Source: a virus (lineage: Duplodnaviria; Heunggongvirae; Uroviricota; Caudoviricetes). From it: a stretch of 5,781 nt of DNA. Below, in pieces: positions 1 to 5,781 of this stretch; within the stretch, counting starts at the first letter, position 1; each line of letters begins with the position of its first letter. The DNA lies in IMG/VR virus record IMGVR_UViG_2744054627_000015, positions 1-5,781 of that record. The stretch is one strand, 5' to 3'. The notes beneath the pieces were generated by a model, which worked only from the letters and a program-made list of their open reading frames with translations, was not told the origin of the DNA and did not search any database. The translations under genes were made by a program, and so were the position numbers.

Positions 1-1062
1 TTCTCCCAAACCAAGGTATGCGAGAAGACCTGCTACATCCTTTCCACTCAAATGAGTCAGCGTATTGTCCAGCGGTTGTTTACCTGCCAGCGCATTAAGC
101 ATTGTCGTGGCAAAGTTCGGATCATTCCCCAGTGCCGCCGCCAGTTCGTTCAGTGTATCCAGTGCCGCAGGTGCAGAACCCACCATTGCCGCAATCGCCG
201 ATTTCACAAATGCCGTGGTGGCAATCTGTGTATTGTTGACCGACTGTGCCGCAGTAGGTGCTGTTGGCGTTCCGGTGAGTGCCGGACTCGACAGCGGCGC
301 TTTCAGTGCCAGCGCATTATTAATAGTGGTACTGAATTTCGGGTCATTGTTAATGGCTGCGGCAATTTCTTTCAGTGTGTCCAGCGTGGCTGGCGCACCG
401 TTAATCAGAGCAGTAATAGCGGCCTGAACAAACTCTGTGGTCGCAATCCGAGTGGTGTTATTTCCTGCTGCAGGCGTCGGCGCTTTTGGTTCTCCGGTAA
501 ATGTCGGATTATGTTTCTGCGCATACTGGGTATGAGGATCTTGTGCGGCAATGTGGTTTCTCATCTGGTCATCCACATACAGCTTTAATTCCAGGACTTT
601 ATCATCCACGTATTTACGGGTTGCCAGCACTACAGCAGGGTCGATTTTCAGGGTGATATTGTCCGTACTGCTGGTAATCAGCACCATGCGCACGGTCTGG
701 GTGCGCCCGCTGCCTTCAGCCAGTTGCGGCTTATAGCTTTCCGGGCAGTTGCCCACGGCAATCAATGCCCCGGACTCATCAAACAGGCCCACTTCACGTA
801 TCCACCAACCGCCCTCGTTTTCAGGGATCACCTGTTCAGCAATAATCTGGCTGCTGTTCTGCGGGTCGATATAAAGCATATTCAGCGCAGCCCGGCGTTT
901 CTCATTTACCAGTGCCGTCTGCTTTGCGTCCGGCGTTGGCAATACTCCGCCGCCATCGCCCACCGCCATATGGGTAATTTTTAGCGGCACACCGAGCGCG
1001 GCGGCGCTGGCAAGTTTCGCCGCGCCAATATCCGTCAGCAGGGTATAAAATTTTGTGCTCAT
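1..1062 (-). CDS. H: Phage tail fibre protein (P2 gpH-like), N-terminal 354 codons; the gene continues past the window start
   Basis: Minus-strand ATG at 1062..1060 overlaps the gene I stop (ATGA). Translation MSTKFYTLLTDIGAAKLASAAALGVPLKITHMAVGDGGGVLPTPDAKQTALVNE... resembles the conserved N-terminal domain of P2-family tail fibres as recalled. The frame stays open to position 1. It is absent from the ORF track only because no stop codon falls inside the window. Confidence 0.88.
   Translation of the reverse strand, partial: MSTKFYTLLTDIGAAKLASAAALGVPLKITHMAVGDGGGVLPTPDAKQTALVNEKRRAALNMLYIDPQNSSQIIAEQVIPENEGGWWIREVGLFDESGALIAVGNCPESYKPQLAEGSGRTQTVRMVLITSSTDNITLKIDPAVVLATRKYVDDKVLELKLYVDDQMRNHIAAQDPHTQYAQKHNPTFTGEPKAPTPAAGNNTTRIATTEFVQAAITALINGAPATLDTLKEIAAAINNDPKFSTTINNALALKAPLSSPALTGTPTAPTAAQSVNNTQIATTAFVKSAIAAMVGSAPAALDTLNELAAALGNDPNFATTMLNALAGKQPLDNTLTHLSGKDVAGLLAYLGLGE
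70..462 (-). repeat. Diverged tandem duplication inside tail-fibre gene H (two units of about 170 nt, 220 nt apart)
   Basis: Protein units at residues 201-257 and 276-331 align (NNTTRIATTEFVQAAITALINGAPATLDTLKEIAAAINNDPKFSTTINNALALKAPL against NNTQIATTAFVKSAIAAMVGSAPAALDTLNELAAALGNDPNFATTMLNALAGKQPL). At DNA level, 308-400 and 88-180 share runs such as ccagcgcatta. Confidence 0.6.
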
Positions 1063-1663
1063 GGATTCACTCTCATTGTGTCAATAACATGGACCGCCCC
1101 GCCTTCATGCGCGGTGCCACCGGAAATAATCGTTTCGTTGATATACGGATAGATCGTGATTTCTTCGCCAAGATAGCTGGCGGCTCCCACCCAATGCGGG
1201 CCGCTGGTCTGCAGATTGATGGACATGCCGATCATGTGGCGGCTACATGGTTTGGCATCGCTTATCAGTCGCTCAAGTTCCAGATAGGTATCTTCAGTGA
1301 TGCCCTGGTCCTGCACGCCGATATCTAGGCGAAACGTGCCCGCTGCCTCTCCGGTCTGCCACCACTCAATAATGCGGATCAGAAAGCCGAACGGCTCCAC
1401 CACCCGCCGCACGGCACTGGTGGTCCCTTTATGCTGATGAATATAAAAAGCATCCTTCACCACCTGGCGCTTGACGCTTTCTGTCCAGCCCTCGTCCCAG
1501 CGATCCACAGAGAACGCCCAGGCGAGATAAGGCAGGAAACTGACCGGACAGGTTGCCGGATTCCACAAGTCACGAAGCGGCACCTGCAGATCAGAATCCC
1601 GCTGCAGGTTTGCGCCAGTCGGCGCTCCAGTGGTGTTGAACCCGGTGGCAGCAGACTATTCAT
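1059..1663 (-). CDS. I: Baseplate assembly protein (P2 gpI-like) with an apparent 1-nt frameshift near 1598-1600; the intact body is the 174-codon frame 1059..1583
   Basis: Body frame (…LRDLWNPATCPVSFLPYLAWAFSVDRWDEGW…) resembles P2 gpI as recalled. The ATG at 1663 has a strong GGAGG (1673..1669, 5-nt spacer), sits 5 nt before the J stop, and encodes a gpI-like N-terminus (MNSLLPPGSTPLERRLAQTCSG), but in a different frame from the body. One extra C in the CCC run at 1598-1600 (G on the coding strand) would join the two. The stop overlaps the H start (ATGA). Confidence 0.72.
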
Positions 1664-2564
1664 CCGTTCCTCCGTTGGTTACGCTCCACTGCGTACATGA
1701 TGCCGCCTGTGTTTTGTTCAGGACCACATCCGCCAGAGGAGAAGCCAGCTCCACACGCTGCACACCCTCAACATGCAGGGCGGCAAAGATGGCGCTACGG
1801 CGAATATCCCGACCAAGACGCGTCTGACTGGCGATGTACTTCTGCAGGCTGGCTTTTGCCGCTGCCATTACCGGCTCTGCTTCCGGTCCCGGATAAAGAA
1901 AAATGGTGGCTTCCACGCGATACGGGATGATTTCTGCGCTGCGAACCGTAAGACGGTCAGCCACCGGGCGGACGTTCTCACTGTTCAGAGCTTTTCCCAC
2001 CACGTCCAGCAGGTCTTTTTCTGCAGTTCCATCGCCTTCGCGGCTAAGGACAGTCAGCACCACCTCTGCAGGTGCCGGGCTGGTTGCACTGGCATCCGCC
2101 ACGCGACCGTCGGCGCTTCGGGCATGAAATTCATAAGCTGCAGTTGGCCCCGCGACTGAAAGCCCTTCAAAGGCTGCAGGCACACGCAGGCGTAACGCTT
2201 CATCGCTTTCCATCACAGCTGCAACGGGCGGCACAGCGTCATTATCAGCAGGCGTCACCGTCAGGCGTTTCACGTTGTAGTTGGCAGCGAGCTGGTCAAG
2301 ATCGCCGCCCATCGCGTAAGCCACCATCACCGCCTGCGCGGCTTCGTTAATGCGCTGGCGCAGAAGCAACTCACGGTAAGCGTTCTCCTGCAACAATTTG
2401 GTGACGGGTTCAGATTCCAGTTCCAGCGTACGCATCACAGCTTCCTGCTCATCTTTCGGATGGAGCGCCACAAATTCTGCCTTACGTTCTGCAAACAGCG
2501 TTTCAAAGTCCGGCACATCCACAATCTGCGGTGCAGGCAACTGCGAAAGGTCAATCACTGCCAT
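1656..2564 (-). CDS. J: Baseplate assembly protein (P2 gpJ-like), 302 aa
   Basis: ORF-track frame 1656..2603 trimmed to the ATG at 2564, which is preceded by AGGAG (2575..2571, 6-nt spacer). N-terminus MAVIDLSQLPAPQIVDVPDFETLFAERKAEF is gpJ-like, and the length matches the 302 aa I recall for P2 gpJ. The start overlaps the 3' end of W by 14 nt. Confidence 0.9.
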   Translation of the reverse strand: MAVIDLSQLPAPQIVDVPDFETLFAERKAEFVALHPKDEQEAVMRTLELESEPVTKLLQENAYRELLLRQRINEAAQAVMVAYAMGGDLDQLAANYNVKRLTVTPADNDAVPPVAAVMESDEALRLRVPAAFEGLSVAGPTAAYEFHARSADGRVADASATSPAPAEVVLTVLSREGDGTAEKDLLDVVGKALNSENVRPVADRLTVRSAEIIPYRVEATIFLYPGPEAEPVMAAAKASLQKYIASQTRLGRDIRRSAIFAALHVEGVQRVELASPLADVVLNKTQAASCTQWSVTNGGTDE

Positions 2565-2910
2565 TCTCGGCTCCTGTTGATACGGAAAGGGAAACAGGCA
2601 CACCGTTATTACGCTGTCCGGTCAGTTCCACCACCATAGAACCGTCAAAATTGCTGTTGATGGTGATGGATTCCAGCGTCAGCCGAGGCTCCCAGCGACT
2701 CAGCGCCACATACACCGCCGACATAATCTGCAGGCGTAACGCCGGATTTTGTGGCTGGTCTATCAGCGCCGACAGCAGGGAACCATATTCACGACGGGCA
2801 ATGCGGCTACCCTGCGGCGTCAGCAGAATATCCCGCACCGACTGGCGCAGATGGTCAATATCAGTAATGGCTTTACCGCTGGTATTGTTCATCCCGATAT
2901 AAAGCGTCAT
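2551..2910 (-). CDS. W: Baseplate protein (P2 gpW-like), 119 aa
   Basis: Translation MTLYIGMNNTSGKAITDIDHLRQSVRDILLTPQGSRIARREYGSLLSALIDQPQNP... resembles P2 gpW as recalled. GGAGG (2921..2917) lies 6 nt upstream of the ATG at 2910. The ATG overlaps the V stop (ATGA). Confidence 0.9.
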   Translation of the reverse strand: MTLYIGMNNTSGKAITDIDHLRQSVRDILLTPQGSRIARREYGSLLSALIDQPQNPALRLQIMSAVYVALSRWEPRLTLESITINSNFDGSMVVELTGQRNNGVPVSLSVSTGAENGSD

Positions 2911-3485
2911 ACCGGGCCTCCGGTGGTGTCGCCACCTTTCTGGACGCCAGTATGCTGATGCGCATCAACCACGATCCCGTTAGAACTCATCGCACCGCCG
3001 CCCTGGGTAACGCCACCATTGATCACCACTTCGCTGTTAATACGTGCGCGGTCAGCCTCCAGTACAAACTCACTGGTTTTCAGGGTGATGTTGTCGACAG
3101 CCTCAATGACCATTGATTTGATGCCCCTGACATACCAGCGCCCGGTGGCGGGTTCGTATTCAAACCAGCCACCGTCAGGATATTCTGTCACGCAGGCGTC
3201 CGCCGACGTCGACGGCGGCGCGAACTGATTCGAATAGACAGCGGGCAACGCAAAGGCGGTTTCCAGATTGCCACCCAGACTCAGCAGCACCACCTGCTCA
3301 CCTTCCGATGGTTTCCACCATGTGCGGGCATTACCCGCACGCAGCGTCAGCCAGCTGATCCAGTTGGTTTCAAGGTCGCCTGTTTTCACCCGGCAAAGCC
3401 AGTTCTCCCGGTCCACTTCGGTGACTACACCAGTGCGAATCAGGTTGGTGATAAGGCGCATGATTTCGGTTAAATGTGCGTTCAT
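2907..3485 (-). CDS. V: Baseplate spike / tail protein (P2 gpV-like), 192 aa from the ATG at 3485
   Basis: Translation MNAHLTEIMRLITNLIRTGVVTEVD...KGGDTTGGPV aligns with the recalled gpV N-terminus (MNTLANIQELARALRNMIRTG...) and the C-terminal GG-rich tail. The ORF-track start at 3542 adds 19 residues with no counterpart in gpV, so the internal ATG is preferred. None of the candidate starts has a convincing Shine-Dalgarno. Confidence 0.82.
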   Translation of the reverse strand: MNAHLTEIMRLITNLIRTGVVTEVDRENWLCRVKTGDLETNWISWLTLRAGNARTWWKPSEGEQVVLLSLGGNLETAFALPAVYSNQFAPPSTSADACVTEYPDGGWFEYEPATGRWYVRGIKSMVIEAVDNITLKTSEFVLEADRARINSEVVINGGVTQGGGAMSSNGIVVDAHQHTGVQKGGDTTGGPV

Positions 3486-3530
3486 GAGAAAAACTAACCG
3501 CCATTGCAAACGCAATCGAGTAGATAGGAA

Positions 3531-3548
3531 TGTTTGATTCATGGCACA
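3531..3548 (-). promoter_or_regulatory. Candidate Ogr/Delta-type late-activator box (TGT-N12-ACA) upstream of V
   Basis: Minus strand reads TGTgccatgaatcaaACA, centred about 54 nt upstream of the V ATG. P2-family late promoters carry a TGT-N12-ACA dyad at about -55 from the transcription start, and V is the first gene of a late operon in P2. It is a single occurrence that could arise by chance, and the spacing to the ATG is tight. Confidence 0.3.
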
Positions 3549-3576
3549 ATACGTTGCTTACTTTTAAGGATATAAA

Positions 3577-4021
3577 ATGAAAGACAATTTAAATCTTCTT
3601 ATAAAAAATTAATAAGAAAGGCATTTCCTGAATTTAGCAATAAGGTAACATGGACTTTACTCACTGCAGGGATCGGTATTCTTGCACTACCTGCACCCAC
3701 ATATTTATTATTCGTAAACCTTATAATTGATTTTTACAACAAAACAACTAATTCAGAAATAAGCTTCTTAAGATTGATAGCATTACACCAAGTAGTGGGG
3801 TTGCTTTAACTTTAATTCTATCCGGGCTAGTCTTTCACCTATTAATAAAAGTCCCCCATATATACCAAGAAATTCTAAAAGAGAATAACCAAAAAGAAAT
3901 ACAGGAAAGAAAAAGAGTAGCAGACGTTAAACTTTATGAGGCATTTATTGATATTCTACCAACAACCTCGTTATCAATTGAATTCTTAAAAGACCATAAT
4001 TTTGAAAACTCCCTATCATGA
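3577..4021 (+). pseudogene. Disrupted ORF for a predicted two-transmembrane protein (about 148 aa if two single-base homopolymer deletions are repaired)
   Basis: ATG at 3577 with AAGGA (3566-3570, 6-nt spacer) opens an 11-codon ORF in frame 1. Frame 0 is then stop-free across 3576..3806 and frame 2 across 3752..4018, with no usable start codon in either. Adding one A to the A6 run (3603-3608) and one G to the G4 run (3797-3800) yields a continuous protein with two hydrophobic helices and a charged C-terminal tail. Confidence 0.4.
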
Positions 4022-4057
4022 TAATAATACAAAAGATATTAGTAATCTTGAATACGG

Positions 4058-4336
4058 GTGGGTCATGCAGATCAACATTTTCATGACAATGAAATTGAAG
4101 ATAAAGCCACTCATCTTTACAGTGAAATAATAAAGTTTAATTATTTTCTCGCTTATAAATCGCACAATATCAATAACTATATGTTTAGCATGCTTACTGA
4201 CAGAGATCGAGCTATGGTGATGGAATTACTACCTCAAACAAAGGAAAATATAAAAATAGCCAATGAGTGGAGTTCTACAATTCATCAGCTTTACTGTGAC
4301 TTTATCTCCACATGTAGGAATAACTTAGCCATATAA
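4058..4336 (+). CDS. Hypothetical protein (92 aa from GTG at 4058, or 51 aa from ATG at 4181); island cargo of unknown function
   Basis: ORF-track frame, same frame as the upstream disrupted ORF and separated from it by a cluster of stops at 4019-4051. It is Asn/Ile/Lys-rich, as expected for AT-rich DNA. No good RBS precedes either start. It ends at TAA 4334-4336, 14 nt from the convergent S stop. Confidence 0.4.
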   Translation: MGHADQHFHDNEIEDKATHLYSEIIKFNYFLAYKSHNINNYMFSMLTDRDRAMVMELLPQTKENIKIANEWSSTIHQLYCDFISTCRNNLAI

Positions 4337-4350
4337 ATCATATGCTGTAG

Positions 4351-4596
4351 TTAATTAAGACAAGTAGCGAAAAAAATATCACGAGTTATCATTTCCGCTT
4401 CGTCGTTAACACCCAAAAGGCGACGCTCTGCGTAACGGACCTCCGGCCCTTTGCGACTGACGCGATCGCGCAGGCCGTAATGGTGAACACGGGCAATGCG
4501 CTGCACCTTACCTTCAAACTGCACGCTGGCAGAATCGGCGCTGGCGGCAGTTTTCAGATATTTTGTGGTGCGTAGCTTTGCAAACATCTGACGTTT
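4351..4596 (-). pseudogene. S: 3' fragment of the tail-completion / virion-morphogenesis gene (P2 gpS-like), truncated at its 5' side by the IS
   Basis: Translation ...KRQMFAKLRTTKYLKTAASADSASVQFEGKVQRIARVHHYGLRDRVSRKGPEVRYAERRLLG... fits my recollection of the gpS / Mu gpG family (MFxKLRTxxYLK ... IARVHH-GLRDR). An in-frame stop at 4621-4623 lies inside the IS end. Only about 80 of the expected 150 codons are present. Confidence 0.55.
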
Positions 4597-4649
4597 TGTA
4601 ATGACCCACTGAAATCCTGCTCAGGTCATAATGAGTGGAGATCACAGAC

Positions 4650-5003
4650 ATGAGCATCACGATGGACGAAGAAATCAAACGTTGGACGGCCAAGCGCAAG
4701 TCCGCCTTGGTCATGGAAATCATTCAGGGCAAGACCACCGTCGCCGAAGCGGCTCGAGCCTTTGATTTGCCGCCCTCCGAGATTGAAGAATGGGTAGATG
4801 ACGCCAAACGGGGCATGGAAAACGCCTTACGGGCCAAGCCACTGGATATTCGCGAGCAGTACGAGAAGCAGCTCAAGGAACTCCAGGAAGCTTATGGCGA
4901 GGCCATGCTGGAGTTACGCGCCAGAAAAAGCTGGCCTCCCTGCTGGGCGAGGACGACAGATAGTCGCCGATGTTCAGCAGGGATTACGCGCAGAAGGTAT
5001 TGA
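4650..5003 (+). CDS. IS3-family transposase OrfA (HTH DNA-binding protein), with an aberrant C-terminal extension in this copy
   Basis: ATG at 4650 preceded by GGAG (4637-4640, 9-nt spacer). Translation MSITMDEEIKRWTAKRKSALVMEIIQGKTTVAEAARAFDLPPSEIEEWVDD...EAMLELRARK parallels IS2 OrfA (...[23 protein letters not shown]). The canonical OrfA tail KKLASLLGEDDR* is in the -1 frame after the A-run at 4925-4929. The ORF-track GTG start at 4635 was not used. Confidence 0.8.
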   Translation: MSITMDEEIKRWTAKRKSALVMEIIQGKTTVAEAARAFDLPPSEIEEWVDDAKRGMENALRAKPLDIREQYEKQLKELQEAYGEAMLELRARKSWPPCWARTTDSRRCSAGITRRRY

Positions 5004-5781
5004 TGTCTCCGTCAGCAAGCTCTGCCGCTGGTTTGGCCTGCCGCGTCGTAGTTGGTACTACCGCAGCGTCAAGGCCGCGCCCAAGCTTCAGGAGCATCTG
5101 GTCACCCCGATCAAAAACATGATTGAGGAGAACCCATCGTTCGGTTACCGGACGGTTGCAGCCCTGTTGGGGTTCAACAAGAACACGGTACAGCGCATCT
5201 TCCAGCTCAAGGGCTGGCAAGTTCGCAAGCGTCCGGTTGGGTTTCGCCCCCGGATCCAGGCCCTGCCTTCGGTGGCCTCAGCGCCCAACCAACGCTGGGC
5301 GACGGACCTATGCCGGATCTGGGCTGGTCGCGATGGCTGGTGTTCCTTGGCGCTGGTGATTGATTGCCATACCCGTGAACTACTGGGATGGCATCTCTCG
5401 CGCAGTGGTAAATCGAAAACGGCCGAGGCAGCGCTGGAGCAAGCCTTAATTGCTCGCTTCGGCAGCTTGGGACGAGTTGCATCGCCGTTTTTGTTACGTA
5501 GCGACAATGGGTTGGTGTTTACCAGCCGCAACTACACAGCACTGGTGAAGAGCTATGGGTTGCAGCAGGAGTTCATCACGCCGTACACGCCGGAACAAAA
5601 CGGCATGGTCGAGCGGGTGATCAGAACGCTCAAGGAGCAGTGTGCCCATCGGCAGAGGTTCGAGACCTTGCAGCATGCCAGTCGGGTGATTGGCGACTGG
5701 ATCCAGTTTTACAACCAGAAGCGTCCTCACCAGGCGCTAAAGATGAAAACACCGGCGCAGGCCTATGCCGAAGCCGCTTAG
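4927..5781 (+). CDS. IS3-family transposase OrfB (DDE catalytic domain); here in the +1 frame relative to OrfA
   Basis: DDE(K) signature: D at 5305-5307 (WATDL), D at 5503-5505 (RSDNG), E at 5611-5613 followed by K seven residues later (ERVIRTLK). No ATG near the 5' end, as is typical when OrfB is made only as an OrfAB fusion. The frame is open from 4798, but the part upstream of the A-run overlaps OrfA and is not considered coding. Stop TAG at 5779-5781. Confidence 0.82.
   Translation, partial: KAGLPAGRGRQIVADVQQGLRAEGIDVSVSKLCRWFGLPRRSWYYRSVKAAPKLQEHLVTPIKNMIEENPSFGYRTVAALLGFNKNTVQRIFQLKGWQVRKRPVGFRPRIQALPSVASAPNQRWATDLCRIWAGRDGWCSLALVIDCHTRELLGWHLSRSGKSKTAEAALEQALIARFGSLGRVASPFLLRSDNGLVFTSRNYTALVKSYGLQQEFITPYTPEQNGMVERVIRTLKEQCAHRQRFETLQHASRVIGDWIQFYNQKRPHQALKMKTPAQAYAEAA

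Follow-up and report, generated by a model that had tools for sequence, protein, structure and literature searches.

The frame disruptions in a 5,781-nt stretch of Caudoviricetes DNA (IMG/VR record IMGVR_UViG_2744054627_000015, positions 1 to 5,781; hereafter the window) are very probably consensus errors in which homopolymers were miscalled, mostly under-called. The window carries the late tail and baseplate block of a P2-like prophage on its minus strand, an AT-rich island with one open reading frame (ORF), and an insertion sequence (IS) of the IS3 family that interrupts the tail-completion gene S. Comparison with related sequences indicates that the underlying genes would be intact apart from this insertion, which is most likely the sole genuine damage. 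The frameshifts are a sequencing or consensus artefact and contain no new biology. In the explanation that we favor, the sequencing platform or the assembler would have miscalled homopolymer lengths, mostly too short, and the reads would show longer runs. The true DNA would contain an intact V-W-J-I-H block and an intact island gene, identical to those in the prophage of Escherichia coli AJ1. The IS would be a normal IS3-family element, in which orfA and orfB naturally lie in different frames and would be connected through -1 ribosomal frameshifting at A_AAA_AAG, and would form the left arm of an IS-mcr-3.1-dgkA-IS unit placed in gene S.

The window was compared by megablast with the closest complete genomes, those of E. 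coli AJ1, H1 (NZ_CP010160.1), and A37. Alignment of positions 1-4596 with AJ1 revealed no substitutions and seven one-base differences in run length, and undoing all seven changes produces identity with AJ1 across 4601 bases. Together with the difference found in the IS, the window has eight run-length discrepancies, of which seven are coding, and comprises seven losses and one gain in all. An earlier note on this DNA, made from the letters without database searches, had described four events, all single-base losses in the same direction. The four runs that it named, CCC at 1598-1600, A6 at 3603-3608, G4 at 3797-3800, and A5 at 4925-4929, are present at these coordinates, and ORFs and translations confirm that the frames of gene I, of the island ORF, and of the IS are all broken in the sequence as given. 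However, the alignment gives eight events instead of four, the sites at 3489-3493, 4011-4013, 4060-4062, and 4370-4376 having been missed, and the direction is not uniform since CCC at 4011-4013 is a gain. Of the four proposed lesion sites, those at 3603-3608 and 4925-4929 were correct, whereas the lesions assigned to 1598-1600 and 3797-3800 truly lie at 1595-1596 and 3764.

In gene I (encoding P2 tail protein I, of 201 aa in the relatives; 1059-1663 on the minus strand; PF09684, Tail_P2_I), which is written as the two ORFs 1059-1583 and 1457-1663, the true lesion found by alignment is AA at 1595-1596, where all relatives have AAA. Adding one A at this position makes the gene I product identical to WP_058101146. 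The neighboring CCC at 1598-1600 is the same as in the relatives by alignment and translation and is thus no lesion. The proposal that one added base restores a sensible frame holds for gene I, but a C added to CCC gives SGDS where all relatives have SGIS, so that the frame is recovered with the wrong residue (D for I).

The island ORF (3577-4336 on the plus strand) carries four run-length changes, which were located by alignment and translation. The first is A6 at 3603-3608, for which the reference has A7, and the alignment confirms the site chosen by the earlier note. The true second lesion is a single C at 3764, for which the reference has CC; all relatives show the same G4 at 3797-3800 by alignment and translation, and adding a G there produces FLRLIALHQVVG for LLKIDSITPSSG, in which 10 of 12 residues are wrong. 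Further along, CCC at 4011-4013 stands for the reference CC, and this one-base gain is offset by a one-base loss at 4060-4062 (GGG for GGGG), 48 nt downstream of it. When only the two repairs proposed earlier are made, stop codons are still met at ~4017-4050, and the frame of the island ORF is not restored.

Two further differences in the prophage part lie outside these genes. A5 at 3489-3493, A6 in the reference by alignment, is non-coding and precedes the start codon of gene V by 3 nt. A7 at 4370-4376, A8 in the reference by alignment and translation, lies within the last codons of gene S and alters the last five of them from ...FFRYLS* to ...FFATCLN*. The eighth discrepancy is A5 at 4925-4929 in the IS, A6 in the reference according to the alignment with the copy on the plasmid pCP53-mcr and, judged largely by match spans, in ~90 plasmid copies.

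The distribution of these changes depends strongly on run length. In its reference state, the window would have only four runs of at least six bases, which occupy 27 nt (0.47%), and all four are one base short; the nine 5-base runs of the prophage part all keep their reference length. If indels fell at random, the probability that four of eight would lie in these 27 nt is P ~3e-8. Non-coding (3489-3493) as well as coding runs are affected. As a control for genuine divergence, we compared the relatives AJ1 and A37 over the same 4.6 kb and found 122 substitutions and no indels. Since the window shows the reverse pattern, zero substitutions and seven indels, real divergence in this lineage does not resemble what is seen in the window.

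The same comparison bears on the other reading raised in the earlier note, that a cryptic prophage under relaxed selection is undergoing real pseudogenisation by slippage. Homopolymers are natural hotspots of slippage, and gene S is truly disrupted by the IS, which could leave the tail genes under relaxed selection. However, slippage-driven decay would have had to produce seven indels with no substitution, against 122 to zero in the opposite sense when this lineage really diverges. It would also have had to act in this copy only: comparison of run lengths with other assemblies of the lineage, which the earlier note had pointed to, showed that 12 of 12 complete E. coli genomes carrying the island have the longer reference run lengths (three by alignment, the others by spans that match the reference run lengths) and that none shares a lesion. 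With the equal density of lesions in the adjoining mobile DNA described below, we regard real decay by slippage as very improbable. These 12 independent genomes, concordant and with intact ORFs, also rule out the possibility that the references are wrong and the window is right. Programmed frameshifting as the origin of the breaks in gene I and the island is likewise ruled out, as the ORFs are uninterrupted in all relatives.

The source of the window extends this evidence into DNA of a different origin. An exact-protein search with the truncated gene S product matched a single contig, LSBR01000054.1 (GCA_001641855.1; 8248 nt), and the reverse complement of this contig from base 2 on gives the window. 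The literature searched for this accession yielded no mention of it. Past the window, the contig continues with the right inverted repeat of the IS, which ends 27 nt beyond, followed by mcr-3.1, dgkA, and the first ~120 nt of a second IS copy, where the contig ends. Plasmids such as pTH164-3 are already known to carry the same IS-mcr-3-dgkA-IS arrangement. When compared with an mcr-3.1 plasmid, the extra 2.4 kb contain six one-base homopolymer indels (five losses and one gain) and no substitutions, and owing to these indels mcr-3 is called as three ORFs and dgkA as two. The full contig thus has 14 run-length discrepancies (12 losses and two gains) and no substitutions in 8.2 kb. The discrepancies are spread evenly over the prophage, the IS, and the Aeromonas-derived resistance cassette, three segments with unrelated histories, at a common density of ~1.7 indels per kb. 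Runs of at least six bases on the contig are shortened in seven of nine cases, and two of the 13 5-base runs outside the window are changed. Since the same errors occur in unrelated adjoining segments, they are a property of how the sequence was read and not of its evolution. The equal lesion density in the IS and in mcr-3.1 and dgkA, which are selectable and were acquired recently, also weighs against slippage-driven decay of the prophage.

A mismatch-repair-deficient (mutator) isolate, or phase-variable tracts, could in principle have generated real indels quickly in all three segments. Loss of mismatch repair makes indel rates in runs climb steeply with run length, and the bias of the contig toward long runs would fit. 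However, transitions accumulate in excess of indels in mismatch-repair mutators, and no substitution is found in 8.2 kb despite this expectation. In addition, four of the events lie in runs of two to four bases, where slippage is rare, and the run lengths are invariant across the 12 other genomes, which argues against phase variation. We therefore consider a mutator or phase-variable origin extremely improbable. The broader proposition that all 14 changes on the contig are real has a similarly minute probability: a fresh mcr-3.1 transposon, the IS, and the prophage would all have been inactivated by slippage without any substitution, and an extraordinary, indel-specific mutator state would be needed.

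The pattern agrees in most respects with the homopolymer consensus errors known from 454, Ion Torrent, and unpolished nanopore or PacBio data. Such errors change run lengths only, leave no substitutions, and are mostly deletions, as seen here. They depend strongly on run length, in line with the seven of nine contig runs of at least six bases that are shortened, and they hit coding, non-coding, and unrelated segments alike, again as in this contig. The signature of homopolymer under-calling suggested in the earlier note is strongly supported by the absence of substitutions beside seven indels, by the dependence on run length, and by the recurrence of the same errors in the IS and in mcr-3.1 and dgkA. 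On the other hand, several points weigh against miscalling. A finished consensus would not usually have as many as 1.7 indels per kb, and four events occurred in short runs (A3, C2, C2, and G4), where classic under-calling is less common; for a well-covered consensus, both the density and the share of events in runs of 2-4 bases are rather high. The plasmid pSEV4_3_mcr3.4 also has A5 in its IS, so that a real A5 variant is possible at that single site. Finally, the artefact call is based on the comparison of assembled sequences. We still consider miscalled homopolymers by far the most probable explanation of the frame disruptions.

The contig ends in an IS copy at one side and within the tail fibre gene at the other. 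We infer that the break inside the tail fibre gene is repeat-driven and, because a short contig that breaks at repeats carries homopolymer indels, that the platform was flow-based and short-read (454 or Ion Torrent type). The contig is not one of the shotgun sequences that the mcr-3 discovery paper lists, and its identification as the Malaysian pig E. coli shotgun sequence of that paper was rejected, as that sequence is JWKH01. In the second IS copy, the left inverted repeat (~8120-8135 of the contig in window orientation) reads TGTAAATGACCC instead of TGTAATGACCC; this one-base over-call in the terminal repeat, A3 for A2, would spoil automated detection of the IS end.

The IS occupies 4598-5781 on the plus strand and was identified by identity to known copies, by its inverted repeats, and by its HTH_Tnp_1 and rve domains. 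Comparison of the inverted repeats places the left one, TGTAATGACCCA, at 4598-4609 on the plus strand, and the terminal repeats are of the TG...CA type (TGTAATGACCCA ... TGGGTCATTACA, the right end being read on the source contig). Among E. coli genomes, 34 (49 records) contain copies at 99.7-100% identity, as do 93 plasmid records, and in the matching plasmids the IS adjoins dgkA downstream of mcr-3. In the literature on mcr-3 contexts, this position next to dgkA is occupied by ISKpn40. The IS is thus probably ISKpn40, a name taken from that literature context (dgkA-ISKpn40) and not from an ISfinder comparison.

As written, orfA (4650-5003 on the plus strand, from the ORF list) encodes 117 aa with the helix-turn-helix (HTH) domain. 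With A6, it would end at TAG 4961-4963 and encode 104 aa, corresponding to WP_039026396. The frame of orfB, which encodes the DDE/rve integrase-core transposase, runs from 4798 to 5781 on the plus strand and is open to a stop that forms the last codon of the window. The sole difference from the pCP53-mcr copy is A5 at 4925-4929 against A6, and for the other copies listed the spans of the matches are consistent with this one A5/A6 difference. In reference copies, orfA (657-971) and orfB (968-1789) overlap, and orfB is in the -1 frame, whereas in the window as written orfB is +1 relative to orfA owing to A5. The run belongs to a degraded slippery site, AGAAAAAG (4923-4930, plus strand), which reads A_AAA_AAG in the orfA frame of the A6 copies. 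A hairpin is predicted at 4937-4983 on the plus strand, starting 6 nt downstream of the slippery site (minimum free energy -39.6 kcal/mol; z = -3.9; 0 of 200 shuffles as stable), and is a putative stimulator of frameshifting.

Programmed -1 frameshifting at A_AAA_AAG is a standard arrangement in the IS3 family, as exemplified by IS911, IS3, and IS150. The reference copies of the IS in the window resemble these elements in their TG...CA repeats, HTH orfA, DDE orfB in the -1 frame, heptamer, and hairpin. The window differs in its heptamer, AGAAAAAG with A5, and in the +1 position of orfB, both of which we put down to the same artefact. Judging from the reference copies, the frame break between orfA and orfB is natural in this IS, and the missing A is predicted to ruin the slippery heptamer and to shift orfB to +1, so that there is no single frame to fuse. 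The earlier expectation that one added base would restore the frame of the IS consequently does not hold in its simple form: the added A recovers the natural two-ORF arrangement, with orfB at -1 and an A_AAA_AAG heptamer.

The plasmid pSEV4_3_mcr3.4 has the same run as A5, and PGAP labels its orfA (657-970 of the stretch compared) 'frameshifted'. In the sister plasmid of strain SEV1, the span fits the A6 copies, and the total lengths of these two plasmids are 6 nt apart. These records suggest that the A-run of the IS is repeatedly miscalled in public assemblies. A mixed case, in which most of the sites are artefacts and the A5 of the IS is a real inactivating variant of this copy, draws on the same public record with its 'frameshifted' annotation and on the fact that dead IS copies are common. 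However, the A6-compatible span in SEV1 suggests that the SEV4 record is in error too, only the SEV4 plasmid copy has an A5-matching span among the 50 IS copies listed, and the A5 of the window is accompanied by 13 discrepancies of the same type on one contig. A real A5 variant in this copy therefore seems improbable, and miscalling remains the preferred reading for this site as well.

The insertion of the IS in gene S appears to be a lesion of a different kind. Position 4596 is the last with homology to AJ1, and the IS begins with its left inverted repeat at 4598, so that gene S is cut at 4597/4598. What remains of gene S (4351-4596 on the minus strand; PF05069; full-length in the relatives) extends from approximately codon 67 to the end of a gene of 147 codons, and the first ~66 codons are missing here. 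Since the prophage sequence shows zero substitutions against intact relatives, the comparison indicates that the insertion is probably a recent event. The exact gene S/IS junction was found in no other assembly among the GTDB species genomes, the JGI metagenomes, and IMG/VR, and no complete E. coli genome spans both of its sides; the reciprocal junction was not found either. If the assembly junction is right, the prophage is predicted to be unable to complete tails whatever the homopolymers say. The earlier note had held that the homopolymer sites decide whether the tail module is functional; instead, however they are read, the IS still interrupts gene S. The colistin-resistance composite unit is located within gene S of a P2-like prophage, and the split of gene S by the IS-mcr-3.1-dgkA-IS unit sets the window apart from other P2-like prophages.

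The remaining prophage genes follow the collinear order S-V-W-J-I-H, which was confirmed by PF05069, PF04717, PF04965, Baseplate_J, PF09684, and PF12571 and by phage matches; the assignment of the minus strand of the window to the late tail/baseplate block is based on ORFs, annotations of the relatives, and Pfam. Baseplate assembly gene V (2907-3485; PF04717), baseplate gene W (GPW/gp25; 2551-2910; ORF, annotation, and PF04965), and baseplate gene J (1656-2564; Baseplate_J domains; zero differences from AJ1) are all intact on the minus strand. The 5' part of the tail fibre gene H (1-1062, minus strand; PF12571), annotated as 'phage tail protein' in AJ1 and A37, is identical to AJ1 and leaves the window at the contig end. 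The gene order and the Pfam families are shared with P2-like (Peduoviridae) phages, with ~94-95% nucleotide identity across the shared genes, and after run-length correction the window is 100% identical to the P2-like prophage of AJ1. In E. coli H1 (NZ_CP010160.1; 3673-4062 of the stretch compared), the prophage is otherwise identical but has its gene H annotated as a pseudogene, incomplete, with a separate gp53-like ORF after it. These near-identical prophages thus vary or are rearranged in their tail-fibre region, and the end of the source contig at this location could follow from such variation.

The island between genes S and V has a GC content of 31.5%, compared with ~55% in its flanks. 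The relatives carry its ORF as a gene for a 253-aa hypothetical protein (coding sequence WP_058101143 in AJ1 and H1). No match to Pfam or PADLOC was found for the island protein, and the corrected protein has two hydrophobic N-terminal segments, as judged by eye. The late regions of P2-like phages contain a variable, AT-rich 'moron' between S and V, at the position of orf30 in P2, and the island lies likewise; its gene is possibly phage cargo of this kind. The island is carried by 12 of 5,426 complete E. coli genomes, which makes its gene a rare cargo, and one without a recognised family. In E. coli ETEC4089 (NZ_CP122625.1) and ETEC1702 (NZ_CP122929.1), the same island is split by IS1B, a real and independently assembled disruption.

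The value of these results lies mainly in annotation hygiene. Read at face value, gene I and the island gene would be taken for pseudogenes, as would the end of gene S and the IS transposase, and the prophage would be described as 'decaying'. Since mcr-3.1 and dgkA are broken by the same errors, protein-level resistance screens would miss a colistin-resistance gene in a public assembly.

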